NCBI GenBank assembly: GCA_041490825.1
Contig: JBGPTW010000002.1
Location: 28,445 to 92,444 of the forward strand
From: Candidatus Methylomirabilia bacterium
GTDB lineage: Bacteria; Methylomirabilota; Methylomirabilia; Rokubacteriales; CSP1-6
Direction: 5' to 3'
DNA: 64,000 nucleotides
Made by a program: the position numbers and the translations under genes. Positions 7,045-56,427 of this stretch are shown one piece after another; within the stretch, counting starts at the first letter, position 1; each line of letters opens with the position of its first letter. Under the pieces are notes generated by a model. That model did no database searches. It was not told the DNA's origin and saw nothing but the letters and a program-made list of their open reading frames with translations.

Positions 7045-7064
7045 CTGCCGGGGTCGGTGACCAA

Positions 7065-30023: not shown

Positions 30024-30032
30024 GACGGATCG

Positions 30033-33431: not shown

Positions 33432-33635
33432 ATGACTGAACGAAACGGGCCGCCTCGACAGAGTCGATCACCGAAAGCCGGACGTCCGCCCGAAGAAGGC
33501 GTGGCACCCCCGAGAGTTCGGCGCCGTCAGAAGACGGCGCATACGGCGTTCCGGAAGGACACCATGATCTCCCAGGCGTCCCAAGGACCGCGCGTCATGT
33601 GGGGCGTGACGAAGCCGAAGGTCAAGAAGGGATAG
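33432..33635 (+). CDS. Possible 67-aa highly basic small protein
   Basis: AGGAGGA SD 5 nt upstream of ATG; MTERNGPPRQSRSPKAGRPPEEGVAPPRVRRRQKTAHTAFRKDTMISQASQGPRVMWGVTKPKVKKG; no domain recognised. Confidence 0.3.
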   Translation: MTERNGPPRQSRSPKAGRPPEEGVAPPRVRRRQKTAHTAFRKDTMISQASQGPRVMWGVTKPKVKKG

Positions 33636-36399
33636 CCTGGTCGAGGCGACGGGCGATCACGTCGCGCACGTGATCCCGGAGCCTCACCATCTCCCTCCAG
33701 CCGTCGTTCCCGGGAACGAGCGGGCCGCCGATCGTCACCCGGATCGCGCCCCGGCGCGGCAGCCAGGTGTCCGCGGGCAGGACGTCGCGCGTCCCGCGGA
33801 TCGCGACCGGGATCACCGCGCAGTGCGTGTCGACGGCGGCCTTGAACGCGCCGAGCTTGAACGGCAGAAGCCGCGGCGTTCGCAGGAACGTGCCCTCCGG
33901 AAAGAAGAAGAGCGAGCCACCGCGTCGCAGCAGCGCGCTCACCCGCTCGGCGTCGGCCACGCTTCGCGAGAGGTCGACGCGATCGACGGTGACGTGGCCC
34001 ATTCGTCTGATCATGGTGCCCACGATCGGCGTGGCCAGGAGCTCCTTCTTCGCGACGAACCGGAAGTCGGCCGGGATCGCCGCGAGCAGCGCGACGGCGT
34101 CGAGATAGCTCGAATGGTTGGCCGCATAGACCACTGCGCCCCCGCGCGGGATATTCTCCAGGCCTTGGACGTCGAGCCGGCAGCCGATCAGTCTGAGCAC
34201 GAGCCGACACCACAGCTTCACGGCCCGGCCCACCGCGCGACCGCCGGGCAACAGGGCGACGGCAGCGTAGAGGGGCGGCACCGTCGTGATCAACACGATG
34301 CCGGCCCGAGCCGCGAATGCCAGCCGGCCGGCGCTGCGAACGGTTTCGCGAACGCGTGCGCCCAGGTTTTCGAGCGCTAGCCGGAGCCGCTGCGTCCGGA
34401 TGGATCGACGGCGTGCCAGCCTACCCTCTACGTAGGCGTCGCGGGTCGCCGATCGCCGGATCTTGCCGCTGGACGTCTTCAGCACCGAGCCGGGCCGCGC
34501 GATGACGACCGTGTCGGGCGGAATCCCGACGGTTGTGACGACCCGATCGACGACCGACGCGCGAAGGCGCTCTCGGGCGTCGGGCCTCGTCTGCCGGCTT
34601 TCGGCCACGACGACGAGCCGCTCGGTTCCGATCGCGGGATCCGAGATCCCGAAGGCCGCCACGCACCCCTTCCGGATGCCGGGGACGTCGCCCACGATCT
34701 CCTCGATCTCTTGAGGATGAATGTTCCGGCCGCCCTTGATGATCACGTCCTTCTGGCGCCCGGTCACGTACAGCTCCCCGTCGGCCGCGTACCCCAGATC
34801 TCCGGAGTCCATCCAGCCGTTTCGCTGAACCGCGCGCGTGGCCTCCGGATTGCGGAAGTACCCGTGCGTCACCGATGGCCCGCGGAACAGGACATGGCCC
34901 TCGACGCGCTCACCCACCGTGTGGCCCGCGCCGGCCACGATGCGGACTTCGTGATCGGGGAGCGGACGGCCGCACGAGACGACCTGCAACGCGTTCGGAT
35001 CATCGGCGCGTGCCGGATCCGCCGTGCGGGTACGCTCGAAGCCCTGTCGCGCGATCCGGTCGACGCGCGGGCCGCGCCCGGGCGGTGTCATCGTCAGACC
35101 GACCGAGGACTCGGCGAGGCCGTACACGGGACACATCGCCGCGAGCGTGAATCCGTACCGCGCGAAGCGGCGCGTGAAGCGCTCGATCGTCTCCTCGCTG
35201 ACGGGCTCGGAGCCGTTGAGCGCGAGACGCCAGGCGCTGAGATCCAGGCCCTCGAGCTCGTCGTCGGTGATGCGCTTGACGCACAGGTCGAACGCGAAGT
35301 TCGGCGCGGGCGACAGCGTGCCGCGATGCGTGTGCAGCGCCCAGAGCCAGCGGGCGGGTCGGGCGAGGAAGGCCAGCGGCGACATGATGACGGTGGGCAC
35401 GCCGTGGTAGAGGGCCCCGAGCCACGCGCCGATCAGTCCCATGTCGTGATAGAGCGGCAACCAGCTCACGCACACGTCGTCCGGGCGCAGCTCGATCGCC
35501 TGCCCGAGCGCGCGGATGTTGGCGAGGATGTTCGCGTGCGTGAGCACGACGCCTTTCGGCTCTCCCGTGCTTCCCGACGTGTACTGGATGAGCGCGGGTG
35601 CGTCGGGAACAAGCCGAGGTGACGGTACCCAGCGCCCGCCGCCGGTCAGCTGATCCACGGCGATCACTTCCCGGAGCGAGCGGACCCGGCTCCGGAGCAG
35701 GCCCGCGATGCGCTCGGCCTCGCCAAAGGTCACGAGGCACCGGGTTGCCGCGTTGCTCAGGATTCCGGTCTGGCGCGCCGCGTATTCTTCGAGCCGGTCC
35801 GCGCGAAATGGTGGATAGATGGGAACCGGAATTCCACCGGCGACCAGGATTCCGAAAAACACCGAGAAGAACGCCTCCTCGGTCCTGAGCATGATGGCCA
35901 CGGACTCGCCGTCGTCGACGCCGCGCTCCCGCAAGGCACCGCCGATCCGCTCGGCCTCGCTCCAGAGCCTCGCGTAGCTGATCGGGCGCTCGAGCCCGGT
36001 CTCCGTTCTGAGGACGATGTGAGTTCGTTCGGGATCGGCCTCGGCGTGCCAGCGGAGAACCTCGGTGAGCGTCCGGGCCGAGGCGGGGGGAGCGGCGCCG
36101 CCTGGCAGCACCGGAACGACGGGAAGCGTCGCTTCCACGATACCGGGCTTGCTCGCGAGAACGGCGGTGACGAGGTCGCGAACCGTGTCGGCCTCGACCA
36201 TGACGTCGTCGCCGACGTGAACCCCGAACGCCTTCTCCAGACGAAGGAGCAGCTCCACCCGCTCGAGGCTGCCGATCGCCAGATCGCGGTCGAGCGAGTC
36301 CTCCAGGCTGACGGGACTCTCGGGCAGAGCGGTTCTGAGCTCCGCCACGAGCCCCGTGACGATCGCGAGGACTTCTCGCTCGACCGCCTGCGCGTCCAT
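33622..36399 (-). CDS. Tri-domain acyl carrier domain - fatty acyl-AMP ligase - lysophospholipid acyltransferase (Aas-like acyl-ACP synthetase/LPLAT fusion)
   Basis: N-terminal carrier domain with phosphopantetheine site (DLAIGSLERVELL); AMP-binding YTSGSTGEPKGV and A8/A10 motifs; C-terminal PlsC motifs NHSSYLDAVALL and FFPEGT. Start at internal ATG 36399, as the upstream 243 aa of the ORF is Arg-rich junk. Confidence 0.85.
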   Translation of the reverse strand: MDAQAVEREVLAIVTGLVAELRTALPESPVSLEDSLDRDLAIGSLERVELLLRLEKAFGVHVGDDVMVEADTVRDLVTAVLASKPGIVEATLPVVPVLPGGAAPPASARTLTEVLRWHAEADPERTHIVLRTETGLERPISYARLWSEAERIGGALRERGVDDGESVAIMLRTEEAFFSVFFGILVAGGIPVPIYPPFRADRLEEYAARQTGILSNAATRCLVTFGEAERIAGLLRSRVRSLREVIAVDQLTGGGRWVPSPRLVPDAPALIQYTSGSTGEPKGVVLTHANILANIRALGQAIELRPDDVCVSWLPLYHDMGLIGAWLGALYHGVPTVIMSPLAFLARPARWLWALHTHRGTLSPAPNFAFDLCVKRITDDELEGLDLSAWRLALNGSEPVSEETIERFTRRFARYGFTLAAMCPVYGLAESSVGLTMTPPGRGPRVDRIARQGFERTRTADPARADDPNALQVVSCGRPLPDHEVRIVAGAGHTVGERVEGHVLFRGPSVTHGYFRNPEATRAVQRNGWMDSGDLGYAADGELYVTGRQKDVIIKGGRNIHPQEIEEIVGDVPGIRKGCVAAFGISDPAIGTERLVVVAESRQTRPDARERLRASVVDRVVTTVGIPPDTVVIARPGSVLKTSSGKIRRSATRDAYVEGRLARRRSIRTQRLRLALENLGARVRETVRSAGRLAFAARAGIVLITTVPPLYAAVALLPGGRAVGRAVKLWCRLVLRLIGCRLDVQGLENIPRGGAVVYAANHSSYLDAVALLAAIPADFRFVAKKELLATPIVGTMIRRMGHVTVDRVDLSRSVADAERVSALLRRGGSLFFFPEGTFLRTPRLLPFKLGAFKAAVDTHCAVIPVAIRGTRDVLPADTWLPRRGAIRVTIGGPLVPGNDGWREMVRLRDHVRDVIARRLDQAIPS

Positions 36400-36446
36400 C
36401 GCGCTCGCTGCGGAGGCAGCGGGTGCCGTCTCTGCCGAGCGCCCGC

Positions 36447-36878
36447 TCAGGCCATCCTCGCCGGACGGTCGAGCTCGCGTGACAGGGCCGAGGCCACGAG
36501 CCCCATCTCCTGACCGAAGAGCATCAGCAGGTCGTCGAGCGCGATGATCCCGGTGAGCTTGCCCTTCTTGTCGACCACGGGCAGCCGTCTCACGCCGTTG
36601 GTGCCGAGCATCTTCGTGACGTCGAAGATCCCCTGATCCTCGCGGATCACGGCCGGGCGCGCGTGCATGACGTCGGCCACTGGCACCGTCGCCGGATCGA
36701 GGCCCTCGGCGACGACGGCGATCGCGATGTCGCGGTCGGTCAGGATGCCCTTCGGCTTCTCGCCGTTGACGACGACGAGGGCGCCGACGTTCTTCTGGCG
36801 CATCAACCGCGCTGCGTCGAGGACGGTCGCCGTCGGGGCGATGGTCACCACGGGCTTGATGCAGACTTCTCCGAGCAT
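36447..36878 (-). CDS. CBS-pair domain protein
   Basis: MLGEVCIKPVVTIAPTATVLDAARLMRQKNVGALVVV... and VMHARPAVIREDQGIFDVTKMLGTNGVRRLPVVDKKGKLTGIIALDD; GGAGGTG SD. Confidence 0.8.
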   Translation of the reverse strand: MLGEVCIKPVVTIAPTATVLDAARLMRQKNVGALVVVNGEKPKGILTDRDIAIAVVAEGLDPATVPVADVMHARPAVIREDQGIFDVTKMLGTNGVRRLPVVDKKGKLTGIIALDDLLMLFGQEMGLVASALSRELDRPARMA

Positions 36879-37113
36879 GGGAACACCTCCTTGGGTGTCT
36901 GGTAATTCTTCCGAGAAGAAGCAAGATGAGGGCCGACACGCCGACACGTAACTGTGCGAATCCGCGATCGTTCGGCCCGGCAAATCCGCGGAGGACTGTG
37001 GAGTGCCCGCCCCACGTGAGGCGCGCCGTCAACGACGAGTCTCGCGAACTCGTTGAATTCTCAGACTCGCAGTTCGGCATCCCAGATGCACGAGCGATCG
37101 GTGCACGTTGAGA

Positions 37114-37131
37114 CCAGTGCATTTTCACTGG
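37114..37131. promoter_or_regulatory. Inverted repeat CCAGTG-cattt-t-CACTGG in the divergent CBS / dksA-groEL promoter region
   Basis: Perfect 6-bp arms with 6-bp AT-rich spacer about 70 bp upstream of the dksA-like gene; not a CIRCE element. Confidence 0.25.
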
Positions 37132-39208: not shown

Positions 39209-39661
39209 ATGACCCGATCTCGTCCGATCCTCCATGCGGCGGACTTCTCCGCGGCGTCGCGCCCGGCGTTCGCACTGGCCGTCAAGTGGGCGAAGCGGAC
39301 CCGGGCGCCGCTGCTGCTGATGCATGTCACCGCGCCGCCACTGGTGTTGCTCGAGCACGATGGCGCGTTGGCGGAGAGTTTGGCGCTCTCCACGCTGCGC
39401 GACGCGCACTCGAGGCTCGACCGGCTGGTCACCACGGCCAGGAGGGCCGGCGTGAGGGCCTCGACGATCGTGCAGAGCGGCGTGCCCGTCGAGCAGATCG
39501 TCCGCGCAGCTCGCGGGAGCCGGGCTGGCGTGGTGATCATCGGCACCCACGGTCGCACCGGGTGGCCGCGGATCGTGCTGGGAAGCGTCGCCGCTCGTGT
39601 CATTACCCTCGCGCCGTGCCCAGTCGTGACCGTTCGCGCGGGGCCACGCCGGGGTCGCTGA
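39209..39661 (+). CDS. Universal stress protein (UspA family)
   Basis: ILHAADFS...LLLMHV...IIGTHGRTGWPRIVLGSVAARVITLAPCPVVTV. Confidence 0.85.
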   Translation: MTRSRPILHAADFSAASRPAFALAVKWAKRTRAPLLLMHVTAPPLVLLEHDGALAESLALSTLRDAHSRLDRLVTTARRAGVRASTIVQSGVPVEQIVRAARGSRAGVVIIGTHGRTGWPRIVLGSVAARVITLAPCPVVTVRAGPRRGR

Positions 39662-40608
39662 TGGTGCAGCACGAGCTCGCCGAGCAGCGGGACGGACAGA
39701 TGCCGGTCACGGCAGCGCCGGCGAGCGATCGCGCGTTCCCCCGCACCATCGACGCGCTTCTCCCTCCGGACATGGCCCGGCGTGCCGAAGAGCTCGGCAT
39801 CGCGAAGGCGGCGATGCCCGCCGCCAGATTGCTGACGCTCGCGGTGCTCGCAGGCGCATTCATCGCGCTCGGTGGAGTGTTCTCGACGGTGGCCATCGCC
39901 GGCACCAGCGGCGCCCCGTGGGGACCCGTTCGCGTGCTGGCCGGTGTCGTCTTCAGCCTCGGGCTGGTTCTGGTGATCGTCGGAGGCGCCGAGCTCTTCA
40001 CCGGAAACAATCTGATCGTGATGGCATGGGCCGCTCACCGGATCGGGACCGGCGCCGTGTTGCGGAACTGGGCGATCGTCTTCGCGGGAAACTTCGTCGG
40101 GGCGCTCTCGGTCGCCGGCCTTGTCTTCGTCGCGCGGACGCACGAGCTCGGGAGCGGCGCCTTCGGCGTTGCCGCGTTCGTGATCGCCTCGGCCAAGCTC
40201 AGTCTGAGGTTCTCGCAAGCGGTCGCGCTCGGCGTGCTCTGCAATGTGCTCGTCTGCCTCGCCGTGTGGCTGACGTTCAGCGCCCGCAGCACGACGGACC
40301 GCATTCTGGCCATCGTCCCGCCGATCGCGGCGTTCGGTGCCGCCGGGTTCGAGCACTCGATCGCGAACATGTATTTCGTCCCGCTCGCGTGGCTCATTGC
40401 CACGTTCGATCCCGGCTTCCTTGCCACGCGAGGATTGAGCGGCCAGGCCGAGCATCTCGGTTGGGCCGCCTTTCTCCGTGACAACCTGCTGCCGGTCACT
40501 CTGGGCAACGTGATCGGCGGCGCCGTGCTGGTCGGTGTCGTGTACTGGTTCGCGTACCTGTGGACGGGCGCCGGGGAGTCGGCGGCCGAGCGGGGAGACC
40601 GTTCGTGA
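39661..40608 (+). CDS. Formate/nitrite transporter (FNT) family channel
   Basis: Six TM segments, [37 protein letters not shown] signatures; TGATG overlap with usp. Confidence 0.85.
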
Positions 40609-42383
40609 GCTGGCCATCGATCGTCAAGCACCCGGGCCCCGGCGGCGTCGTCCCGAACCTGGAAGACTACGAACGCGGGCGCGCCGAATTCTCGTGGGAC
40701 GAGGCGCGGGCCGAGCTGGACGGGCTCCCGGGCGGCCAGGGTCTCAACATCGCGCACGAGGCGGTGGACCGCCACGCGGCGGGTGCGCGTGGGCAGCATC
40801 TCGCGCTGCGCTGCCTCGGGAAGGACGGCGAGATCCGCGACTACACGTACGCTCGCCTCGCCGAGGTGACCAGCCGCTTCGCGAACGTGGTACGCGCGCT
40901 CGGCGTGGGCCGCGGCGACCGCGTGTACATCCTCGCCGGCCGCATTCCCGAGCTCTACATCGCCGTGCTCGGCACGTTGAAGAACGGGAGCGTCGCCTGC
41001 CCGCTGTTCTCCGCGTTCGGCCCGGAGCCAATTCGCGCGCGCATGACGATCGGCCAGGCGCGCGTGCTGGTCACCACCGAATCGCTGTACCGCCGCAAGG
41101 TCGCGGACCTGCGCTCCGCGCTGCCCGATCTCGAGCACGTCCTGCTCGTGGCCGATCGCCCGCGTCCGGTCGAGGTGCCCGGCACGCGCGACTACCACGC
41201 GCTGATGGCCGAGGCATCTCCACGCTTCACCATCGGCCCGACCGACCCCGAGGACATGGCGCTCCTGCACTTCACGAGCGGAACCACCGGCACGCCGAAG
41301 GGAGCGGTGCACGTCCACGACGCGGTCGTGGCTCATCACGTCACGGGGAAACTGGCGCTCGACTTTCACCCCGACGACGTCTTCTGGTGCACCGCCGATC
41401 CTGGCTGGGTCACGGGGACCTCGTACGGGATCATCGCGCCGCTGACCAACGGCGTGACGAGCATCGTCGACGAGCGGGAGTTCGATGCCGAGCGATGGTA
41501 CGGAATCTTGCAGTCGCAGAACGTGTCCGTCTGGTACACGGCGCCGACCGCGATCCGGATGATGATGAAGACCGGGACAGCGCTGGCCCGGAAGTTCGAT
41601 CTCGCGCGCCTGAGATTCCTGTCGAGCGTCGGCGAGCCTCTCAATCCCGAGGCCGTCGTCTGGGGTGAGGAGACCTTCGGCCATCCGTTCCACGACAACT
41701 GGTGGCAGACGGAGACTGGCGGAATTATGATCGCCAACTTCGCCTCGATGGAGATCCGGCCGGGTTCCATGGGCCGGCCGCTCCCCGGCGTCGAGGCCAC
41801 CATCGTCCGGCGGATCGATCGCGACCGTGTCGAGGTGATCGAGGAGCCGGATCGACAAGGCGAGCTCGCGCTGCGCGCGGGCTGGCCGTCGATGTTCCGC
41901 GGCTACTGGCGCGAGCCCGAGCGCTACCGCAAGTGCTTCGTCGACGGTCTCTATCTCACGGGGGATCTCGTTCGGCGGGATCGGGACGGCTACTTCTGGT
42001 TCGTCGGACGCTCGGACGACGTCATCAAGACCTCGGGCCACCTGATCGGCCCCTTCGAGGTGGAGAGTGTGCTGATGGAGCATCCGGCGGTGGCGGAGGC
42101 CGGCGTCATCGGCAAGCCCGACCCGGTGGCGATGGAGACGGTGAAGGCGTTCGTCTCGCTCAAGGACGGCTGGGAGCCGACGCCGGAGCTCCGGCGTGAG
42201 CTGCTCGCACTCGCGCGGACGCGCCTTGGCGCTGTCGTGGCGCCCAAGGAGATCGATTTCCGCCCGAGCCTGCCGAAGACCCGGAGCGGCAAGATCATGC
42301 GTCGCTTGCTCAAGGCGCGGGAGCTCGGTCTTCCCGAGGGTGACATCTCGACCCTCGAGGACGACACCGGGGAGTCCGGATGA
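40605..42383 (+). CDS. AMP-forming acyl-CoA synthetase (acetyl-/acetoacetyl-CoA synthetase-like)
   Basis: [28 protein letters not shown]...[43 protein letters not shown]; GTG start overlapping FNT stop (alternative ATG at 40560). Confidence 0.85.
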
Positions 42384-43363
42384 TGGAAGACCCGCCCGTG
42401 GAGCGAGAGCACGCGCTCGCGCTGCTTCGACAGATGCTGCTCATCCGCCGCTTCGAGGAGAAGGCAGCCGAGGTCTACACGCTCGGCAAGATCCGAGGAT
42501 TCCTCCACCTCTACATCGGCGAAGAAGCCGTCGCCGTCGGCGCCATGCAGGCGTTCACGCCGGACGACGCGATCGTCGCGACCTATCGCGAGCACGGCCA
42601 GGCGCTCGCGCGCGGGATCCCGCCCGGGTCGTTGATGGCGGAGATGTACGGCAAGGCGAACGGGTGCAGCCGGGGCCGCGGCGGCTCCATGCACTTCTTC
42701 GACGTCTCGCGCCGGTTCTATGGCGGCCACGCCATCGTCGGGGGCGGACTCCCGATCGCGGTAGGCCTCGCGCTCGCCGACAAGCTTCAGGAGCGCAATC
42801 GCATCACCGCGTGCTTCTTCGGGGATGGCGCCGTTGCCGAAGGCGAGTTCCACGAGTCACTCAATCTCGCAGCGCTGTGGAATCTGCCGGTGCTTTTTCT
42901 CTGTGAGAACAACTTCTATGCGATGGGGACGGCGCTGTCGCGTCATCAGGCGCAGCCCGACATCACGCTCAAGGCGACAGGGTATGGCGTCCCCGCCGAA
43001 GGGGTCGACGGCATGGACGTTCTCGCCGTTGAAGCAGCGACCCAGCGAGCCGCAGACGTGGTGCACGGCGGCCCCGGACCGTTCCTGCTGGAGGCGCGCA
43101 CGTACCGGTACCGGGCTCACTCGATGGCCGATCCCGAGCTGTATCGACCGAAGCAGGAAGTGGAGGAGTGGAAGACGCGCGATCCCATCGTGACGTTCAC
43201 CGCTCAGCTGCGCGCGTGGGGACTCTTCACCGAGGCGGATTCGGCGGCCATCGAAGCGGAGATCGCGACCGAGATCGATCGAGCGGTCGCGGTCGCGGAA
43301 GCGGGACCCTGGGAGCCCGTCGAGGACCTCACCAAGGACGTCTACACGCCGGTGAGTCGATGA
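42380..43363 (+). CDS. Pyruvate/acetoin dehydrogenase E1 component alpha subunit (TPP-dependent)
   Basis: [18 protein letters not shown]-binding [37 protein letters not shown]. Confidence 0.9.
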
Positions 43364-44341
43364 CGACGAAGAAGATGACCTACCGCGAGGCGGTGCGCGG
43401 CGCGCTGCGCGAGGCGCTCCGGAGCGATCCGCGCGTCTTCGTGATGGGCGAGGACGTCGGCCGCTACGGCGGCTCCTTCGCCGTCACGCATGGTCTTCTC
43501 GAGGAGTTTGGCCCCGAGCGTGTCCGGGACACGCCGCTCTCGGAGTCGACGTTCCTCGGGGCCGGCATCGGCGCCGCGCTCGGAGGGATGCGGCCGATCG
43601 TCGAGATCATGACCGTGAACTTCGGTCTCCTCGCGCTCGACCAGATCGTCAACAACGCGGCCACGCTGCGGCACATGTCAGGGGGCCAGCTCAGCGTGCC
43701 GCTCGTCGTGCGCATGGCGACCGGCGGCGGACGCCAGATGGCGGCCCAGCACTCGCACAGCCTGGAAGGCTGGTACGCGCACATCCCGGGGATCAAGATC
43801 CTCGTGCCGGCGACGGTCGCCGACGCCAGAGGCCTGCTGGTGGCAGCGCTCGACGAACCCGATCCGGTCTTCGTCTTCGAGCACGCCACGCTCTATCCGC
43901 TCGAGGGCGAGATCGATCTCGACGCGGGCCCTGCCGATATCGGAAAGGCCGCGGTGAGGCGCGCCGGCGACGCCATCACGCTGATCACCTACGGCGGCAC
44001 GCTCGGCAAGACGCTCGAGGCGGCGGACCGTCTCGCGGCCGAGGGCATCGACGCCGAGGTGATCGATCTGCGCTCGCTCCGGCCGCTCGACACGCCGACG
44101 ATTCTCGTCTCGGTCGCGAAGACGCACCGAGCGCTGATCGTCGACGAAGGCTGGCGCACCTGCAGCTTCGCGGCCGAGGTCAGCGCGCAGATCATGGAGC
44201 GTGGCTTCTACGACCTCGACGCCCCGGTCGCGCGCGTGTGCAGCGCGGAGGTGCCGATGCCCTACGCGAAACACATGGAGGATGCGGCACTGCCACAGGT
44301 CGCCACCATCGTCGACACGGCGCGCGCGATCCTGAAACCGC

Positions 44342-44349
<8 letters not shown>
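43360..44349 (+). CDS. Pyruvate/acetoin dehydrogenase E1 component beta subunit
   Basis: [46 protein letters not shown]...: transketolase-like pyrimidine-binding and C-terminal domains; ATGA overlap. Confidence 0.9.
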
Positions 44350-45459
<1,110 letters not shown>

Positions 45460-45463
<4 letters not shown>

Positions 45464-45711
45464 CGAGAGACGAGCTCCGGGCCACGGTGATACGCGTGCT
45501 CGGCGACATCGCGCCGGAGATCGACGCCGGCTCGCTCGAGCCGAGCGTCGCGTTGCGCGAGCAGCTCGACCTGGACTCGATGGACGTCCTCAACTTCATG
45601 GTCGGGCTTCATGCGGCGGTCGGCATCGACATTCCCGAGACGGATTATCCAAGGCTCTCCACGCTCGAGGGGTGCGTGGAGTACCTGGCGGCGAAAGACC
45701 GCGGTCCATGA
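45460..45711 (+). CDS. Acyl-carrier-protein-like small protein
   Basis: 83 aa; [15 protein letters not shown] carrier-domain Ser motif; GTG start overlapping E2 stop (GTGA). Confidence 0.6.
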
Positions 45712-45717
45712 CGAGAC

Positions 45718-46218
45718 GTGGAGGTTGCCATGGCGATTACGGAACGGCTCAAGCGTGTTCTGGATGCCGAGCGGGTTCGTTACGAGGTCCTGCCGCACCA
45801 CGAGGAGTTCACGGCCCAGAGAGTCGCGGCGGCGAGCGACGTCCCCGGCCGGCAAGTCGCGAAGGTGCTGATCTGTCGTGACGATGCCGGACGCTCGCTG
45901 ATGGCCGTGCTTCCAGCGGCCTGCCGCATCGACCTGATCGCGCTTCAGGCAGCGGCCGGGACGGGGAAGCTCTCGCTGGCCACCGAGGCGGAATTCGAGC
46001 CGCTGTTCCCGGACTGCGAAACCGGAGCGATGCCGCCGTTCGGGACCCTGTGGAACATGCCGCTCTACGTCGACGCCTGCTTCCCGCGGGCGAAAGATTT
46101 CGTCTTCCAGGGCGGGAATCATCACGAGGTGGTCGTCATGCCGTACGAAGCGTACGAGCGGATCGCGAAACCCGTCGCCGGCGAGTTCTGCCTCGAGAAA
46201 CGGGTCGCCGCCGCCTGA
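45718..46218 (+). CDS. YbaK/ProX-like aminoacyl-tRNA deacylase domain protein
   Basis: ...LPHHEEFTAQRVAAASDVPGRQVAKVLIC...GAMPPFGTLWNMPLYVD... pattern of YbaK/aa-tRNA-synthetase-associated editing domain. Confidence 0.65.
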   Translation: MEVAMAITERLKRVLDAERVRYEVLPHHEEFTAQRVAAASDVPGRQVAKVLICRDDAGRSLMAVLPAACRIDLIALQAAAGTGKLSLATEAEFEPLFPDCETGAMPPFGTLWNMPLYVDACFPRAKDFVFQGGNHHEVVVMPYEAYERIAKPVAGEFCLEKRVAAA

Positions 46219-46249: not shown

Positions 46250-47308
46250 GTGCGAGACGCGGCCCCTACTGAGGCGCCTGTGCTAGCGCTCGACGCCTCA
46301 CACGGTGAGGGTGGCGGCCAGATCGTGCGCACCGCGCTCGCACTCGCGGTGGCCCTGCGTCGGCCAGTTGCGCTGGAGCGCATCCGCTTGCGGCGGCCGA
46401 AGCCCGGGCTCCAGCCGCAGCACCTCACGGTGGTCCGGGCCCTGGCGGCGATCAGCGACGCGCAGGTCGACGGCGATCAGCTCGGCTCGACGGCGCTGTC
46501 TTTCGCGCCGCGCACTCTCCACGCGGGCGACTGGCACTTCGACATCGGCGCCGTCAAGGGCAGCGCGGGCTCGGTGTCGCTGCTCTTCCAGTCATTGCTA
46601 CTCGCGCTGGCATTCGGTAGCGCACCATCCCGGCTGACGCTCGTCGGCGGCACGCACGTGCCGTGGAGCCCGACGGTGCATTACCTGACCGCGGTCTTCG
46701 TGCCCGCGCTGGCGCCGCTCGGATTCGCCGCCGACGTGCGCCTGCGGCGCTGGGGCTGGTATCCGGCGGGTGGTGGACAGATCGAGGCCACCGTCACCCC
46801 GGCGAGGCACATGGCCGGGGTGACGGCGACGAACCCGCCACGTCCACTCGCGATCGCCGGCGTCTCCGCGGTGTCGCACCTGCCGCGCTCCATCGCCGAG
46901 CGCCAGCGCCGGCAGGCCGAGGCGCGCCTCGAGGCCGCGGGCCTGAGCGCCGCCATCACGATCGAAGAGGATGCCGCCGCGCACGGCCCAGGCACCGTGC
47001 TGTTCCTCGGAGTCCACGGCCGGGGCGGCTTCTCCGGGCTGGGTCGGCGCGGCCTGCGCGCCGAGCGCGTGGCCGACGAGGCCGTGGACGCGCTGCTCGA
47101 CTGGCGGGCGAGCGGCGCCGCGATCGACGTGCACCTGGCCGATCAGCTGGTGCCGTTCCTCGCGCTCGCCGAGGGTCCGTCGTCATTCACGTGTCCGCGG
47201 CTGTCGGACCACCTGCGTACCGTCGCGTGGGTCGTGCAGCAATTCCTGGCGGTCGACATCGTCCTCGACGACGAGCGCCCGGCCCGGGTGGAGGTCGTGC
47301 CGATATGA
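46250..47308 (+). CDS. rtcA: RNA 3'-terminal phosphate cyclase RtcA
   Basis: LDASHGEGGGQIVRTALALAVAL, HLTVVRALAAI, GSAGSVSLLFQSLLLALAF, His site region LADQLVPFLALAEG. Confidence 0.85.
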   Translation: MRDAAPTEAPVLALDASHGEGGGQIVRTALALAVALRRPVALERIRLRRPKPGLQPQHLTVVRALAAISDAQVDGDQLGSTALSFAPRTLHAGDWHFDIGAVKGSAGSVSLLFQSLLLALAFGSAPSRLTLVGGTHVPWSPTVHYLTAVFVPALAPLGFAADVRLRRWGWYPAGGGQIEATVTPARHMAGVTATNPPRPLAIAGVSAVSHLPRSIAERQRRQAEARLEAAGLSAAITIEEDAAAHGPGTVLFLGVHGRGGFSGLGRRGLRAERVADEAVDALLDWRASGAAIDVHLADQLVPFLALAEGPSSFTCPRLSDHLRTVAWVVQQFLAVDIVLDDERPARVEVVPI

Positions 47309-48456
47309 CGTCTCCACTCACGCTCTTCCTCTGTGGCGACGTGATGACGGGCCGCGGCGTCGACCAGGCGCTTCCGCATCCCGGCGATCCGCGCATCCAC
47401 GAGCCGCACGTGAAGAGCGCCGAGCGGTACGTGGAGATCGCCGAGCGGGCGAACGGCCCGATTCCGCGCCCCGTCGAATTTTCCTACATCTGGGGCGACG
47501 CGCTCGAGGAGCTCGCGCGCGTGCGGCCGAGCGCGCGAATCGTGAACTTAGAAACCAGCATCACGCGAAGCGACGACTACTGGAGGGGCAAGGGGATCAA
47601 CTACCGGATGCACCCGCACAATGTTCCCTGCCTCACGGCCGCGCGCATCGACTGCTGCGTCCTCGCGAACAACCACGTGCTCGACTACGGCTACCCGGGC
47701 TTGATCGAGACGCTCGAGAGTCTACAGAGGCTTGGCGTGACGACCGCGGGCGCGGGCCGGAATCTCGCTGAGGCGCGAGCACCGGCCGTGATCGACGTTC
47801 CAGGGCAAGGACGAGTGATCGTCTTCGCATTTGGAACGGAGACGAGCGGGATCCTCCCGGGCTGGGCGGCAACGGAAGACCGGCCCGGCGTGAGCTTCCT
47901 GCAGGATCTGTCGGACCAAACCCTGGAACAGGTCGCCGAGACTCTGCGGAGCGTCAAGCGACCCCGCGACGTCGTCGTCGCGTCCATCCACTGGGGTGAC
48001 AACTGGGGATTCGCCGTTCCAGAGGACCACGTCCGCTTTGCGCATGGTCTCATCCACGCTGAAGTGGACATCGTCCACGGACACTCCTCGCACAACGTTC
48101 GCCCGATCGAGGTGTTCGAGGGGAAGCTCATTCTCTACGGGTGCGGCGACTTCCTCGACGACTACGAGGGCATCGGCGGCCACGAAGAATTCCGGGACGA
48201 CCTCACGTTGATGTACTTCCCGACCGTGGACCCTCTCACCGGTCGGCTCTCCGACCTGCGCATGACGCCGATGCGGATCCGGCATTTCAAGGTCAACCGC
48301 GCGTCGCGCGAGGAAGCCGGATGGCTGAGCGACACGATTACTCGCGAGAGCGAGCGGTTCGACTTCCGGCTGGAGCTCCGCGAAGACCACCGCCTCGAGC
48401 TTCGGTGGGCCTACGACGGCTGCGCTAGAGACGACAGGCGCCGGGATCGCACGTGA
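47305..48456 (+). CDS. CapA/PGA_cap-family metallophosphatase-fold protein (poly-gamma-glutamate synthesis CapA-like)
   Basis: LFLCGDVMTGRGVD, NLETSITRSDD, VLANNHVLDYGYPGL, HWGDNWGF, VHGHSSH; ATGA overlap with rtcA. Confidence 0.8.
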   Translation: MTSPLTLFLCGDVMTGRGVDQALPHPGDPRIHEPHVKSAERYVEIAERANGPIPRPVEFSYIWGDALEELARVRPSARIVNLETSITRSDDYWRGKGINYRMHPHNVPCLTAARIDCCVLANNHVLDYGYPGLIETLESLQRLGVTTAGAGRNLAEARAPAVIDVPGQGRVIVFAFGTETSGILPGWAATEDRPGVSFLQDLSDQTLEQVAETLRSVKRPRDVVVASIHWGDNWGFAVPEDHVRFAHGLIHAEVDIVHGHSSHNVRPIEVFEGKLILYGCGDFLDDYEGIGGHEEFRDDLTLMYFPTVDPLTGRLSDLRMTPMRIRHFKVNRASREEAGWLSDTITRESERFDFRLELREDHRLELRWAYDGCARDDRRRDRT

Positions 48457-50260
48457 CGAAGAACTCCCGCGCGTTCGGATCCTCGTCGACTCCGAGCGTC
48501 ACGACCTGGCCTGCCTTCGACCCCCAGCGATAGACCGTGAGCCCCTTGAGCCCGAGCTCCCAGCCACGGAGGAAGGCGTGCGCGACGTCCTCCTGTCCGG
48601 CGTCCTCGGGGAGGTTGATCGTCTTGGCGACCGCGTTGTCGACGTGACGCTGGAACGCCTGCTGGATGGCCAGGTGACCATCGACGGGAATCTCGGTGGC
48701 GGTGACGAAGAGCCGCTGCACCGGCTCGGGAACGTTCGCCACGTTCCGAATGCTTCCGGTCGCCAAGATGGGCTCGACGACGCCGGGGCTCTCGAGCCCC
48801 CGATCGGCGAGGCAGCGAAGCAACATCGGGTTCACCTCGCCGATCGGCGGGCCGCCCAGCGCGTGCTCGCGCCGGTACGCGAGCGCGAAGAGCGGCTCGA
48901 TGCCGCTGCTCGTCCCGGCGATGATGCTGATCGTTCCCGTGGGCGCGATGGAGAGCAGCGTGGCGTTCCGCACGCGCTCGCCGCGCTCCATGTGCACGCT
49001 GTCGGCGAACCGTGGGAACACCCCGCGCGCGGCCGCCAGCTCGCGTGAAGCATTCCGCGCTTCGGTCGCGATGAACGCCATCAGTCGATCAGCCCAGCCG
49101 GCGGCGTTCTCGCAATCGTAGGGAACGCCGAGGCGGATCAGGCACTCTGCGAAGCCCATCACGCCGAGGCCGATCTTGCGGGTGGCCCGCGTGGCGTCTC
49201 CGACCACAGGGAGCGGATCACGGTTGACCTCGATCACATCGTCGAGGAATCGCACGCCCGTGCGCACCGCGTGGCGCAGACGATGCCAGTCGACGTCGGG
49301 CGCCCCACTGGCGTTTCGCACCATGTGGGCGAGGTTGACCGAACCGAGGACGCAGCTCTCCCACGGCCGGAGTGGGACCTCGCCGCAAGGATTGGTCGCA
49401 TCGATGTCGCCGAGGGCGCGGAGAGGATTGGCGCGATTGATCGCGTCGAGGTAGAGCAGTCCGGGATCACCCGCGCGCCACGCCCGATCGACGATCCGGT
49501 CGAAGACACGCCGCGCCCCGAGCCGCCCGACGACGTGCCGATCCCGGGGGTGAAGGAGCTCGTAGCTGCCGCCCTCTCGGGCGGCGCTCATGAAGTCGTC
49601 GGTGACACTCACCGAGAGATTGAAGTTACGAAACCGCTCGCCCGAGAGCTTGGCGTCGATGAATTCCAGGATGTCGGGATGGTCCACGCGAAGCACGCCC
49701 ATGTTCGCGCCGCGCCGGCGACCGCCCTGCTTGATGCTCTCCGTCGCCGAGTCGAAGACACGCATGAACGAGACGGGGCCCGAAGCATCACCGCCGGTCG
49801 AAGCCACCACGTCGCCCTGCGGGCGGAGGCGCGAGAACGAGAATCCGGTGCCGCCCCCTGCCCGCTGCAGGAGCGCCATCGCCTTGAGCGACTCGAAGAT
49901 CCCGTCGATCGAGTCCTCGACCGGCAGCACGAAGCACGCGGCGAGGACGCCGAGCCGAGTGCCGGCGTTCATCAGCGCCGGCGAGTTCGGGAGGAAGTCC
50001 AGGGACTCGAGGAGCCTCTGGAACACCTCCTGCCAGAGATCGGCGTCGCGCGCCTTCCCGAACGCGAGCTCGGCCTGGGATACCGCCCGGGCCACGCGGT
50101 GGAAGAGCTCCGGAGGCGTCTCGATGACCCGTCTCTCCGCATCGCGCCGCAGGTAGCGCGCCTCCAGCACTCGAAGCGCGGTCGCGGACAGATGCGCCGC
50201 GGTCTCCACGGCGCTCACGGTGCGCCGTGGCGCGCCATCACCCCTTGCCTTCGTCCTCAT
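48425..50260 (-). CDS. nrdJ: Class II (adenosylcobalamin-dependent) ribonucleotide reductase (NrdJ/NrdZ-like)
   Basis: Active-site [21 protein letters not shown], glycyl-less class II architecture, C-terminal CDPGAC redox tail; start at internal ATG (upstream ORF part low complexity). Confidence 0.9.
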
Positions 50261-50670
50261 CAGCCGCGCGTCGCTCGAGATGCCAGTAATGCCGGTCCCG
50301 CGCTCGGAGGATCTCGTCGGACGTGTGGACCTCGGCGTCGGATTCTTGCTCGACACCGAGCGCGTGGCCGAGCTCGTCGACGACGTCCTGGTCCGGCGTC
50401 GCCACGCTGCCGCCCACCGTCTCTTCGCCCGAAGCCTCCGCACGCCGCCAGTCGGCGTCGACGTCGCCGCCGCTGAGGGCCGGGCTGGTCTCGGGGTGAC
50501 GCAATCGCTCCTCGACGAGATCAACCGCCGCGCCACCCTGTTCGGGGATGGCGCCGGTCGGCGCCGGGCGCTTCCGAGGGCGCCGCGCCTTGGTGGATCG
50601 CCGCCGCTTGTTCGAGCTTCCCCGTGGACTCATTGCCGCCCTCCATCGCGACGAAGATGTGATCGGCACT

Positions 50671-51357
50671 TCAGGCGCCGTAGTGATAGGGGGTCTCTGC
50701 CCTCGTGACGAGCCGATTCTCGACGCCCCGAGAGCTCTCGATCGCACGCGCCATCGTTTCGAGCGCGGACCGTTCCGGCTCGCTGAGCACGAGGCCCCAG
50801 AGCGAGATGACGCCATCCTTGGCGCCGACCAACACGCGGACCGTTGAAGTCCATGGCTCGCGCGCCATCCGAGACTTCATCTCGGCCACGAGCTCGACGT
50901 CGGAGCGGGACAGCGTCGACGGCACCGCCGCGGCCAGGGCCTTGACGAGGTCGCCCCGGCTCACGATGCCGACCAACTGGCCATCGCGCATCACTGGCAG
51001 GCGGCGGATGCCGCGGGCCTCTAGAATTGCGGCGGCCGTCTCGATGTCGAACACGGGGCTGATCGAGATCACAGCGCGTGTCATCACCTCGCCAGCAGTC
51101 GTGCCCGCGGCCTTTTGGTACTCGCGGGCGAGCCACTCTCCGCTCTCGAAGAACGAACGCCACCACGGGCGCTTTCCCCGCGGCTTCTGACGAAGGATCA
51201 GGTCCCCGTCGCTGAGGATGCCAACGAGCCGCCCGTCGGCGCCGATGACGGGCAGGCCGCTGACGCCGTGGTCGACCATCAGTCGAGCGGCCTTCGCGAT
51301 CGGCGTCTCAGGGCTCACCGTGATGACGTCGCGACTCATGATGTCTTCGACAGTCAT
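50671..51357 (-). CDS. CBS-pair + BON domain protein
   Basis: IMSRDVITVSPETPIAKAARLMVDHGVSGLPVIGADGRLVGILSDGD and VMTRAVISISPVFDIETAAAILEARGIRRLPVMRDGQLVGIVSRGD, then BON-like ...VRVLVGAKDGVISLWGLV. Confidence 0.8.
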   Translation of the reverse strand: MTVEDIMSRDVITVSPETPIAKAARLMVDHGVSGLPVIGADGRLVGILSDGDLILRQKPRGKRPWWRSFFESGEWLAREYQKAAGTTAGEVMTRAVISISPVFDIETAAAILEARGIRRLPVMRDGQLVGIVSRGDLVKALAAAVPSTLSRSDVELVAEMKSRMAREPWTSTVRVLVGAKDGVISLWGLVLSEPERSALETMARAIESSRGVENRLVTRAETPYHYGA

Positions 51358-51643
51358 CGCCGTCCCCCACGCGCGGTCGCCGCGGTGCGGCCCGGCCGCT
51401 TCGGGCCCGCGCGCCACCGCGTCCGCAACGTCCCGGCGACCGCGCCTGCCGCCACGAGGGACCCGGCGACGGTGAATTCACCGAGGCGTGGCGCGGCCAG
51501 GCGGCGGTACTCGGCGGAGCGCATCCGCACTGCGGTCTCGGCATCCCCGGCGGGCATCGTCAGATCCCGCAGCTGGAGAACCGCGCGATCAACGAACGTG
51601 GGGATGCCGAGGAGGGTACGGAGCTTCTGATACATCGTCGTCG

Positions 51644-52045
51644 TCAGTCCTTCACCTGCGCTTCAGTCCAGACTTCCTTGAGGTCCTTCGGGAGCTGCGC
51701 GAGCACGTCGTCCGCCTCGCCGGAAGAAATCTGCGCCTTGAGCGCTGCGAACACCGCGACAGTTGCCCAGCGCGCCTCTCGTGTCGTCGCAAGCCCGGCA
51801 TCCGCCTTCACCCGCTCGTAGAATCGCTCGCGGTCCATCCTCGAGGGCTTTCGATCCGTCCGCTCGCCCTCCTCCCACACGTTCTTCAGCTCAGTAGGCA
51901 GCTGAGCCATGACCTGGTCGGCCTCCTCGGGTGTCAGACGGTCACGTAGTGCGTGGAAGACCGCGGCGGTTGCTCGCTTGGCAGCCTCCCGGTTGCGGTC
52001 GCCGCTGGTGTCCATGACTGTTCGATAGAACGTCTGGGTCGTCAT
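51644..52045 (-). CDS. DUF2267-family protein (two repeats)
   Basis: Repeated ...AAKRATAAVFHALRDRLTPEEADQVMAQLPTELKNVW / ...ARWATVAVFAALKAQISSGEADDVLAQLPKDLKEVW; GGAGGAGGAG SD. Confidence 0.7.
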   Translation of the reverse strand: MTTQTFYRTVMDTSGDRNREAAKRATAAVFHALRDRLTPEEADQVMAQLPTELKNVWEEGERTDRKPSRMDRERFYERVKADAGLATTREARWATVAVFAALKAQISSGEADDVLAQLPKDLKEVWTEAQVKD

Positions 52046-52644
52046 GGTGCTCCTCCTCCGGGCCCGAAAGGAGGTGCATCGCCGGTGCCAGGCCAAAGCC
52101 GTTCGATTTCAAACGCACCATAGCCTCATCTTGCTGCTGGACCTCGAGCGCTTCGTCGCGCGGATGCGCTGGGCGCGAGAACAAGTTGCACACGATCTTG
52201 CCGGGGCACTTGGGATCGATCTTCATCAGGCCGGACTGGGATGGGGCAGGAGCGCAACAGTCGGGGTAACCGAGTCCCAGGCCGGCGGCCCAACGAGGAC
52301 GCGATCGCCACGCAAGTTTTTGATCATCCGGGGACTGGCACGCCCCACTGAACCACTGAAGTGAGAACCATCGTTGAGGCAACGCCCTGTAAACACAGCG
52401 TTGCGCCCTCGGCACACTCGATGCACCAAAGCAGCCGAAGCAAAACACTCGCCGCACCCGGGGGGGAGTGCGAATGGACGATCAGCATGAGCTCGACGAC
52501 AGGAGATTCGCCGCTACACTCGCGACTCTCGAGAGCAGATCGTCCCAGGAAGATCGACCGCGTCATCGACTACGTCGGCGAGAGATCTCGCGTTTTCGGC
52601 AATCATCCTCGCCGTCCGTCGTACGCGGGAGGGAGCAAACAGCG

Positions 52645-52899
52645 ATGCGGTTCTTTCAGCCTGAGGTCGAAGTTACGCTGAAGACTCTCGGCATCCTGAT
52701 GCTGCTGGCTCTGGTCGCGTGGCCTATGACGTGGGGTTACGAGCAGCGGCAGCGAGCAAGGGACTGGCAAAACATCGCGTGCGCCTACCGTCTCCGAGAA
52801 GCGCAGCTTCAGATGCCAATGCTTGTGGACCTCAAGGATCGTGGCGACGCGTGTGAAACGATCGATCGGCTCGGCCTGGACTTCGTCACGCCGCGATGA
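52645..52899 (+). CDS. Small membrane protein (84 aa) of unknown function
   Basis: GGGAGGGAG SD; one TM (LGILMLLALVAWPMTW). Confidence 0.4.
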   Translation: MRFFQPEVEVTLKTLGILMLLALVAWPMTWGYEQRQRARDWQNIACAYRLREAQLQMPMLVDLKDRGDACETIDRLGLDFVTPR

Positions 52900-52990
52900 G
52901 CAACGACAACGGGCCAGCGCCTCGCCGAACGTGGAGCGATCCTGTCGGACCGAGAACGAGCGTGTCGCTTTCGAGAGGATGGAGGAACGT

Positions 52991-53284
52991 ATGCCGACTT
53001 ACGTGATGCTCACGCGCCTCACACCGGAAGCTGTGAAGACTCCTGGCCATCTGAAGCAACTCGAGCAAGCCGTCGCCGATCATGTCCGCAAAGATTGCCC
53101 CCAGGTGAAGTGGGTCGCGAACTACGCCATCCTGGGGCGGTACGACTATCTGGACATCTTCGAGGCGCCCGACGAGATGATCGCGGCGAAGGTCGTGATG
53201 ATCATCCGATCGTACGGCCACGGACAGACCGAAACATGGACGGCGATGCCGTGGGAGCGCTTCGAGATCGTGCTGCCCAGCTGA
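52991..53284 (+). CDS. GYD-domain protein
   Basis: MPTYVMLTRLTPEAVKTPGHLKQLEQAV...YAILGRYDYLDIFEAPDEMIAAKVVMIIRSYGHGQTETW: GYD family signature; GGAGGAA SD. Confidence 0.7.
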   Translation: MPTYVMLTRLTPEAVKTPGHLKQLEQAVADHVRKDCPQVKWVANYAILGRYDYLDIFEAPDEMIAAKVVMIIRSYGHGQTETWTAMPWERFEIVLPS

Positions 53285-53292
53285 GGTTGGCC

Positions 53293-54477
<1,185 letters not shown>

Positions 54478-54509
54478 GGCCCGTACCCTCTTGGCGGTGC
54501 ACGCGCGAG

Positions 54510-55541: not shown

Positions 55542-55745
55542 GCCAATGTCCCTCTCCGAGAGTCTACGCTGTGCCTGATTCCAACGTCCTGGGGTAACGC
55601 CGGGACACCGATGGGGCAGCGTCGCAACGCTGCGGCAGCATAACCGTCCGAGATCCTTGATGCGCCTCGTGGCACCCCGGATGCACGTGTGCATGAGATC
55701 CAGATTCAGCCGGAGCGGAACGTCCAAGGACCCAGGAGATCAGTG

Positions 55746-56183: not shown

Positions 56184-56427
56184 GTCGACCGGTGGCTCGG
56201 ACTGGATGATGCAGAACTGACCCGTGACGTCGAGCCCCGCGTGAGTCGGAAATACATTCCGTACGACAGCGGCTGCTCTACGCTTTGGCGCATTTGCCTC
56301 ACGAGTGGATCGGAATGCCGTGGCCCGGGCGCCCCATGTGGGGCCGGACGGCGCGCCTCACTCGGAACGCTCACACGCATTGTTCACGACTTCGGCTCCG
56401 GCGCGACTCTTGCTGCCCCAATACGCC

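Follow-up and report, generated by a model that had tools for sequence, protein, structure and literature searches.

An acyl carrier protein gene coupled to genes for an acetate ligase and pyruvate dehydrogenase-type E1 and E2 subunits in a Methylomirabilia bacterium and its relatives

The gene chain and its products

The stretch of DNA analysed here (positions 28,445 to 92,444 of contig JBGPTW010000002.1, Candidatus Methylomirabilia bacterium; hereafter 'the window') is 64 kb long, has a G+C content of about 68%, and carries a chain of overlapping genes that leads from a universal stress protein through an acetate ligase and the E1 and E2 subunits of a 2-oxoacid dehydrogenase to an 83-aa open reading frame (ORF) of the acyl carrier protein (ACP) type. 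Between 39.2 and 45.7 kb the real genes, as read from the sequence, are all on the + strand, and gene calls made independently on a JGI contig of 145 kb that is near-identical (L011) agree with them. Seven of these genes overlap from stop to start by 1 to 8 nt, and the family assignments of all genes were upheld by Pfam and NCBIfam:

39209..39661, + strand: universal stress protein (USP), 150 aa (PF00582, 87.6 bits); first gene of the overlapping chain, its stop sharing 1 nt with the FNT start
39661..40608, + strand: FNT-family (FocA-like) monocarboxylate/anion channel, 315 aa (PF01226, 246 bits)
40605..42383, + strand: AMP-forming acetate-CoA-ligase-type synthetase (ACS), 592 aa, core gene (NF003313, 916.2 bits)
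42380..43363, + strand: E1 alpha, binding thiamine diphosphate (ThDP), 327 aa, core gene (PF00676, 292 bits); ATGA overlap with ACS
43360..44349, + strand: E1 beta, 329 aa, core gene (Transket_pyr and Transketolase_C); ATGA overlap with E1 alpha
44342..45463, + strand: E2 dihydrolipoyl acyltransferase, 373 aa, core gene (PF00364, PF02817, PF00198)
45460..45711, + strand: stand-alone ACP, 83 aa, core gene (PF00550); GTG start within the E2 stop (GTGA)

From USP to the 83-aa ORF, the junctions are TGATG (1 nt), GTGA (4 nt), ATGA (4 nt), ATGA (4 nt), an overlap of 8 nt, and GTGA (4 nt). The chain stops after the 83-aa ORF, with a gap of 18 nt to a YbaK-like gene (ATG at 45730) and a further gap of 31 nt to RtcA, which in turn overlaps CapA by 4 nt. 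The junctions, read directly from the sequence, confirm the chain of FNT, ACS, E1, E2 and ACP-like genes described in the original prediction (made from the sequence alone), and the stop/start overlaps agree with its proposal that the genes form one overlapping unit, which is probably translationally coupled. Promoter/terminator, Rfam and tRNA scans of the window returned nothing informative.

By the combined results of profile search, alignment and structure prediction, the 83-aa ORF is a genuine phosphopantetheine-binding carrier protein, as the original prediction had suggested. The PF00550 profile matched residues 5-76 of the 83 with 27.0 bits (gathering cut-off 20.8), and the predicted phosphopantetheine site, Ser40 in the motif QLDLDSMD, was invariant in alignments of 12 and 33 sequences and in 80 loci. 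In the AlphaFold2 model (predicted local distance difference test (pLDDT) 91.3, predicted template modelling score (pTM) 0.81), helix II comprises residues 40-54 and thus begins exactly at Ser40. The top Foldseek matches of the model were all ACPs, of fatty acid synthase (FAS) type or mitochondrial, with T. thermophilus ACP (1x3o) as the best (template modelling score 0.84, root mean square deviation 1.7), and many of the best matches were ACPs that act as fixed subunits of non-FAS complexes. The ORF is not the housekeeping AcpP, because it reached only 27.6 bits with the AcpP model TIGR00517 (threshold 70.45); all 13 NCBIfam ACP models were far under their cut-offs.

One homology search produced 497 ACP homologues of 79-95 aa with about 65-99% identity, annotated at the source as acyl carrier or phosphopantetheine-binding proteins of Rokubacteria/Methylomirabilota, while a profile search of 1.84 billion representatives produced 963 ACP clusters at E<=1e-10, in nearly every case of a protein that stands alone and has a length of 80-110 aa. 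No natural E2-ACP or ACS-ACP fusions were present in the latter search: an apparent fusion of 355 aa (P0255) was a frameshifted read-through, and the sole real fusion found joined ACP to OsmC. The possibility raised at the outset that the ORF might be an artefact of GTG start calling could be dismissed, as orthologues begin at the same overlapping position, mostly with ATG, and the gene is conserved in at least 545 genomes. No phosphopantetheinyl transferase (PPTase) was present among the 30 window ORFs scanned with Pfam, and the precomputed gene calls of L011 added none.

The ligase and both E1 subunits, which by family are those of a heterotetramer-type E1, scored as canonical enzymes. ACS exceeded the cut-off of the acetate-CoA ligase equivalog NF003313 (916.2 versus 729), and could be aligned end to end with a solved acetyl-CoA synthetase (PDB 9g79, 580 bits). 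It has kept the motif WWQTETG (from residue 366), the Trp of which closes the acetate pocket, as well as the A10 Lys (catalytic or acetylatable) of RSGK at residue 563. E1 alpha passed the model for the alpha subunit of pyruvate dehydrogenase (PDH) E1, TIGR03182 PDH_E1_alph_y (450.7 versus 393.85), with the ThDP motif GDG...NN at residues 148-178, and E1 beta passed NF006667 (400 versus 321).

E2, judged by these profile comparisons and by alignment, is the component of the module that diverges most. Its architecture comprises a lipoyl domain (Lys42), a peripheral-subunit-binding domain (PSBD) and a catalytic domain (His348 and Asp352), and K42, H348, D352 and H354 were at least 97% conserved in 61 sequences (the window protein and 60 orthologues). 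Every E2 equivalog model stayed under its cut-off (TIGR01349, 245.5 versus 445), and the AcoC model NF011457 matched the lipoyl domain only (75 versus 307). The family carries a DGHRG signature, in which a near-invariant His-Arg-Gly lies right behind DHRxxDG, where human E2p has Ala-Val-Gly. Its C-terminus is fixed as well: the family always ends in ...LLQxPxxL (...LLQEPARL in the window), 2-4 residues short of the solved cage-forming E2s (human 8x03, together with 3duf, which we take to be the B. stearothermophilus E2, and 7b9k and 1c4t, presumably E. coli E2s). The C-terminal 3-10 helix of E2 makes the 'knobs and sockets' contact between trimers by which 24- and 60-mer cores are built, and an altered contact helix gives rise to a trimeric E2p in actinobacteria (10.1101/2020.07.24.212647).

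Conservation of the cassette and the proposed acetyl transfer

For the analysis of gene neighbourhoods, the ACP alignment was scanned against one genome per species, giving at least 600 candidate stretches, of which tblastn confirmed at least 545 as relatives; the ACP subfamily is accordingly present in at least 545 species genomes. The best 80 of these relatives were taken as the locus set, the presence of genes upstream of ACP was scored by tblastn with the window proteins, and the counts cover those loci with enough upstream sequence. E2 was found directly upstream of ACP in 66 of 71 loci, and E1 beta, E1 alpha and ACS upstream of it in 57 of 62, 53 of 58 and 47 of 54 loci, respectively, in the constant order ACS-E1 alpha-E1 beta-E2-ACP. 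In about 70 of 75 loci, from at least 10 phyla, an ATGA or GTGA forms a 4-nt overlap between the E2 stop and the ACP start. The adjacency of E2 and ACP noted in the original prediction is therefore conserved in related genomes; its description of an E2-coupled ACP as unusual is apt relative to textbook PDH operons, but not for environmental bacteria, in which the arrangement is widespread.

The module was identified (from record titles) in Methylomirabilota/Rokubacteria, Binatia, Acidobacteriota, Myxococcota, Gemmatimonadales and beta-proteobacteria, in Nitrospira (including the complete genome of Ca. N. defluvii, L050), in Planctomycetota (Pirellulales and Isosphaerales), and in Actinomycetota, including the cultured Cellulomonas soli (L038), Thermoleophilia, Gaiellaceae and Acidimicrobiia. 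Across phyla, identities to the window proteins were 62-82% for ACS (in alignments that span half of its length or more) and 57-85% for E1 beta; between the window and distant phyla (L012-L089), ACS, E1 alpha and E1 beta were 60-85% identical, and the window E1 beta is 80% identical to that of an Isosphaerales metagenome-assembled genome (MAG; L040). Typical housekeeping proteins are less similar than this between distant phyla. Identities this high suggest that strong constraint acts on the cassette and that its genes have probably been transferred horizontally together, and since ACS, E1 and E2 share this level of identity and move together, they appear to constitute one functional cassette.

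On these comparative grounds, the conserved core is ACS-E1 alpha-E1 beta-E2-ACP, and FNT, the YbaK-like gene, RtcA and CapA are lineage-specific. The inclusion of these four in the unit, as originally proposed, did not hold, since they accompany the module in close relatives only, and they were rejected as core members. Within the core, E2-ACP is the tightest link as far as gene order tells: the two genes adjoin in 66 of 71 loci, they overlap in about 70 of 75, and they stay together where ACS has been lost, frameshifted or separated. L026 and L067 have no ACS and L035 has a frameshifted one, with E2-ACP intact, and in L008 a histidine-kinase gene is inserted between ACS and E1 alpha with E2-ACP still coupled. 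One of these loci, L026 (a Chloracidobacterium MAG, 5235-8258), has kept E1 beta-E2-ACP with no E1 alpha or ACS detectable upstream, their place being taken by a 201-aa ORF without a Pfam match; either a variant or an error of assembly could account for this arrangement.

The five loci without E2 (L083, L086, L087, L088 and L090, from Lentisphaeria, Bacteriovoracia, Kiritimatiellota, Victivallales and Opitutales) carry a distinguishable, ketosynthase (KS)-linked ACP subfamily (DSMDFLDIVMELRK), as does L091 (Opitutia), the upstream sequence of which was too short to count. This sister subfamily, with 46-51% identity, is that of Bacteriovoracia and of bacteria of the PVC group. In L086 and L090, the sister ACP lies between a ketosynthase gene and a FAD amine-oxidase/desaturase-like gene, with a KASIII-like gene next in L086; the ORF sizes in L083 and L091 match this arrangement, and the FAD oxidase was confirmed in L091. 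The sister-ACP locus is an uncharacterised type II FAS/polyketide synthase (PKS)-like cluster.

The absence of a local E3 gene, also part of the original prediction, extends to the relatives. The redox-disulfide signature of E3, C....C.P[STK]K, had no match in any of the six frames of the window or of 91 related loci (1.14 Mb), so that by this signature no E3 gene is present in the operon or within 8-10 kb at any of the 91 loci; no Pyr_redox_2 domain was present among the 30 window ORFs scanned with Pfam, and the precomputed calls of L011 added none. As only 64 kb of the genome is in view, E3, a PPTase or a second PDH may lie elsewhere in it.

The reading that we favour, tentatively, is that E2 passes acetyl to the thiol of ACP. 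E1 would decarboxylate pyruvate (or a close C3/C4 analogue) and reductively acetylate the lipoyl-Lys42 arm of E2, and the E2 catalytic domain, with His348 and Asp352, would then hand the acetyl on to the thiol of the phosphopantetheine carried by Ser40 of ACP, giving acetyl-S-ACP, so that ACP would act instead of, or besides, free CoA as the acetyl acceptor. ACS would feed acetate into the same acetyl-thioester pool and, in the lineage of the window, the FNT channel would move a monocarboxylate substrate or product across the membrane. The dihydrolipoyl arm would be re-oxidised by an E3 encoded elsewhere.

This transfer is favoured because no other link in the module is as tight or as conserved as that between E2 and ACP, because the QncN/L/M and SclQ1-4 systems (discussed below) offer a precedent, and because of the kinship of the E2 fold. 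The condensation domains of non-ribosomal peptide synthetases (NRPSs) share the fold and mechanism of the E2 catalytic domain, and act on carrier-bound thioesters. Fold and mechanism are also common to the E2 catalytic domain and chloramphenicol acetyltransferase (10.1101/2020.07.24.212647). Further backing comes from an ACP that appears competent in sequence and structure tests, from the divergence of E2, from the fact that E3 was never co-located in the scanned loci, and from the joint conservation of ACS, E1 and E2 across phyla. The original suggestion that the acyl group may be passed to a carrier protein rather than to free CoA has thus become more plausible, by way of conservation and biochemical precedent.

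Several observations weigh against it. ACS is a high-scoring acetate-CoA ligase equivalog and E1 alpha and beta pass PDH equivalog cut-offs, and because these scores are canonical, a plain CoA-dependent PDH with ACS is fully compatible with the sequences. E2 retains its PSBD, consistent with a normal E1/E3-binding complex. Operons without E3 are not rare, and E3 is often shared between complexes. Finally, neither a PPTase, a ketosynthase nor another obvious consumer of acetyl-ACP was a conserved member of the clustered neighbours in the 80 loci.

Genomic context and alternative explanations

Beside the module, the window contains genes for tandem USPs, FtsH, BON proteins, three P-type ATPases, Archease and RtcB, three CBS-pair proteins, an Aas-like protein, a DksA-type zinc finger, GroEL, RtcA, a class-II-like ribonucleotide reductase, a CBS+BON protein and DUF2267. 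The features referred to below are:

10906-33414 and 48425-57729: stress/dormancy-type gene set, including two tandem-USP genes, a triple-BON protein, three adjacent P-type ATPases and GYD
33622..37128, - strand: Aas-like tri-domain protein (PP-binding, AMP-binding and PlsC acyltransferase domains, by Pfam), divergent from the operon region
45730..46218, + strand: YbaK/ProX-like tRNA_edit-domain protein, 162 aa (PF04073, 83.5 bits)
46250-47308: RtcA, downstream of the YbaK-like gene
56305-57729: phosphoribosyltransferase/alpha-beta-hydrolase fusion

Its gene content gives the window as a whole the appearance of a stress or dormancy-type island, and the gene set resembles the mycobacterial DosR regulon, a likeness that provides context and no proof of regulation. 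Recurrent neighbours in the 80 loci were found by clustering and mostly named by reading representative sequences (OsmC, HSP20 and PolX also being Pfam calls on L007, L008 and L010). Tandem USP genes, recurrent but not fixed, were present in 25 of the 80 loci, followed by phosphoribosyltransferase (18 loci), HSP20 (15), CBS (12), RtcB (8), OsmC (7), GroEL (6) and PolX (6). Because it is embedded in islands of this type, the module is probably used in starvation, hypoxia or oxidative stress.

RNA-repair genes are recurrent beside the module: Archease and RtcB lie at 29595-31508 in the window, RtcB is found in 8 loci of other phyla, and in Nitrospira L050 (8243-8923) a gene for an RlaP-family nucleotidyltransferase overlaps the ACP stop. 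An archaeal-type S-adenosylmethionine synthetase (27905-29113; PF01941, 428 bits) is encoded in the window, in a bacterial genome, and the same family occurs near the module in L007. Near the start of the window (101-3436) there is what looks like a defence or RNase-type gene, whose product of 1111 aa combines a Swt1-like HEPN domain at the N-terminus with DUF499; next, on the opposite strand, come genes for an NA37-like protein (4423-6246) and then a subtilase (6885-9605).

The FNT channel, a member of its family by Pfam, stayed under the cut-off of TIGR04060 focA (262.6 versus 290.1), and among relatives it accompanies the module in only some Methylomirabilota loci (L011, L014 directly after ACP, and L008 4 kb downstream). 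The YbaK-like protein is not a YbaK equivalog, because it scored 38 with TIGR00011 against a threshold of 153; a proofreading role on acyl-/aminoacyl-thioesters or esters is conceivable. Beyond the near-identical contigs, its gene was found only in a Binatia MAG (L030, 48% identity), 5 kb upstream of the module. The Aas-like tri-domain architecture also adjoins the module in L011 and L008, whereas L015 has just a weak ACS-like tblastn match, on the minus strand upstream of the module; the true start of the gene is probably downstream of that of the maximal ORF (JGI call, 925 aa), and its product may be an acyl-thioester or lipid-remodelling/re-acylation enzyme linked to the module.

OsmC is a neighbour of a different kind, as in a Methylomirabilota clade its gene comes right after ACP itself, overlapping it by 4 nt in L015, L017, L020, L032 and L035 (from computed coordinates) and separated from it by a short gap in L008, L010 and L013. 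In one lineage (P0209/L092, 518-1237) ACP and OsmC are naturally fused, and the fusion gene follows E2 directly, again overlapping it as ATGA; the window has no OsmC gene. Lipoyl groups on E2 proteins of 2-oxoacid dehydrogenases are the proposed biological reductants of Ohr/OsmC peroxidases (PMC5384416). Taken together, a lipoyl-dependent OsmC next to ACP points to a possible E3-independent re-oxidation of dihydrolipoyl-E2, and in the Methylomirabilota relatives with an ACP-coupled OsmC this peroxidase may re-oxidise the arm in place of E3. The link to the module is lineage-specific and indirect.

The favoured transfer of acetyl from E2 to ACP can be taken further, to a reading that we consider doubtful. 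The module would then represent an unrecognised, horizontally spread class of 2-oxoacid dehydrogenase with a dedicated ACP as acceptor and no dedicated E3, with a truncated inter-trimer helix and possibly an open, non-cage E2 core that admits ACP to the CoA side, and with OsmC-type recycling of the arm, coupling pyruvate or acetate to acetyl-ACP supply and peroxide detoxification in dormancy-like states. Its hosts would be Nitrospira, Methylomirabilota, Acidobacteriota, Planctomycetota, Actinomycetota and others.

Four other explanations were weighed. In the one that survives best, although we regard it as unlikely, the module encodes an ordinary CoA-dependent PDH and acetyl-CoA synthetase, and ACP is co-expressed for a fatty-acid or lipid pathway used in times of stress, where it would be loaded downstream (FabD-/FabH-type) and not by E2. 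The passing of curated acetate-CoA ligase and PDH E1 thresholds by ACS and E1 alpha/beta is what such a system would give, as is an acetyl-CoA synthetase as the closest structure to ACS; the position of the sister ACP subfamily beside KS and KASIII genes and the Aas-like lipid acyltransferase adjoining the module in Methylomirabilota point in the same direction. What is left unexplained is why, in about 70 loci of different phyla, ACP is fixed to the E2 stop without an accompanying FAS gene, and why E2 has its family signature and shortened C-terminus.

It is quite unlikely that ACS loads ACP, from acetate via acetyl-AMP to acetyl-S-ACP in the manner of ANL adenylation/carrier pairs, with E2 exchanging acetyl between ACP and lipoyl, or that the route runs in reverse, from pyruvate via acetyl-ACP to acetate and ATP with export through FNT, as a channelled substrate-level phosphorylation for anoxic survival. 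ACS and E2 both handle pantetheine thioesters, and the module encodes no additional thiol carrier but ACP; 47 of 54 loci contain ACS, FNT channels and pyruvate phosphate dikinase (PPDK) adjoin the module in some relatives, and the surroundings, a stress or dormancy-type island, would suit a survival route. The gene order argues otherwise, as ACS is the first and ACP the last gene and E2-ACP persists in loci from which ACS is lost or in which it is frameshifted or separated, and so does the great similarity of ACS to the CoA-using AcsA. Reverse operation of AMP-forming ACS is documented in only a few anaerobes.

Improbable, and placed below loading by ACS, is a role for ACP as a structural or regulatory subunit of the E2 core rather than as an acyl acceptor, for which respiratory complex I, EmbA/B-AcpM and MmpL5-AcpM are precedents. 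Translational coupling implies stoichiometric co-assembly, the ACPs fixed in non-FAS complexes among the best structural matches would fit, and a bound partner could complement the shortened trimer-trimer region of E2. The invariant Ser40/DLDSMD argues that the prosthetic group matters, an argument that is weak because structural ACPs keep the motif too.

It is highly improbable that ACP is a private octanoyl-ACP donor for LipB-/LipM-type lipoylation of the adjacent E2 lipoyl domain; octanoyl-ACP is given as the natural donor for protein lipoylation in PMC9307952. L007 has a BPL_LplA_LipB gene 8 kb upstream of its module, but no gene for a lipoyl transferase (LipB or LipM) or LipA was present among the conserved neighbours, and the housekeeping AcpP already fills this role. 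The ligase, moreover, keeps WWQTETG with its pocket-closing Trp, which makes loading of octanoate unlikely.

Transfer of acetyl from E2 to ACP is the reading that we tentatively prefer. The conservation of the module across many phyla suggests an undescribed enzyme machine that hands acetyl to a protein-bound thiol. If E2 does load ACP, this would be a new route to acetyl-ACP, the annotation of PDH, and hence metabolic models, would need revision in many environmental bacteria, and central carbon metabolism would be tied to shared stress or dormancy gene islands. Among the hosts of the module are Nitrospira defluvii, which oxidises nitrite, and cultured Cellulomonas; in the public annotation of N. 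defluvii, CBK43525-CBK43529 are listed as PDH E1/E2 and a 'putative acyl carrier protein'.

Comparison with known systems

PDH-type complexes are textbook CoA-dependent enzymes, and the module resembles the canonical complex (Bacillus/mitochondrial pdhABCD) in an E1 that passes PDH cut-offs and an E2 with lipoyl domain, PSBD and a catalytic domain with DHRxxDG. It differs in having no E3 in the operon or loci, an E2 that falls under the equivalogs, carries DGHRG and is 2-4 residues short, a coupled ACP, and ACS in the lead. With the acetoin dehydrogenase system (AcoA/AcoB/AcoC/AcoL), which is often induced in stationary phase, it shares E1 alpha/beta and a lipoylated E2 and, on the proposed reading, a C4/C2 substrate and an acetyl thioester as the yield; the acetoin system has no ACP or ACS, and the window module lacks AcoL (E3) and matches the AcoC model in the lipoyl domain only.

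The CitC/CitD pair of citrate lyase is functionally analogous to the loading of ACP by ACS, in that CitC, an AMP-forming ligase, attaches acetate to the thiol of its own small carrier, CitD. CitD differs in fold and in its prosthetic group, 2'-(5''-phosphoribosyl)-3'-dephospho-CoA, and has no PF00550 homology, and the system has no 2-oxoacid dehydrogenase components. The lipoyl-dependent antioxidant systems (Ohr/OsmC with lipoylated E2, and the mycobacterial Lpd-DlaT-AhpD-AhpC) are comparable by way of the OsmC coupled after ACP in the Methylomirabilota clade, a likeness that is lineage-specific and indirect, with no OsmC in the window.

Full-text literature searches returned no description of an ACS-PDH-ACP module. 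To our knowledge, a few natural-product clusters of Streptomyces are the only known cases in which an E2 passes its acyl group to a carrier protein. According to PMC6335953, which cites Peng et al. 2012 in PNAS, QncN/QncL/QncM and SclQ1-4 comprise E1alpha-like, E1beta-like and lipoyl/acyltransferase E2-like proteins and a 76-aa ACP, a C2 unit being built on the lipoyl arm and delivered to ACP. As described, QncN/L/M (quinocarcin), NapB/NapD and SclQ1-4 (scleric acid) are the same protein set, encoded together, as in the window module, with an E2-like protein of about 380 aa; these systems are described as lying in NRPS clusters with a PPTase, using ketose phosphates and making glycolicacyl-ACP as an NRPS building block. 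Unlike these clusters, the window module has no NRPS, PKS or PPTase among its scanned ORFs or conserved neighbours, and it differs further in its attached acetate ligase, an E1 that scores as true PDH E1, a stress-gene context and an occurrence in at least 10 phyla. The chemistry of E1/E2-to-ACP transfer is thus already known from secondary metabolism; new is the cassette, with its acetate ligase, PDH-grade E1, signature E2, lack of a local E3, stress-island context and very broad distribution.

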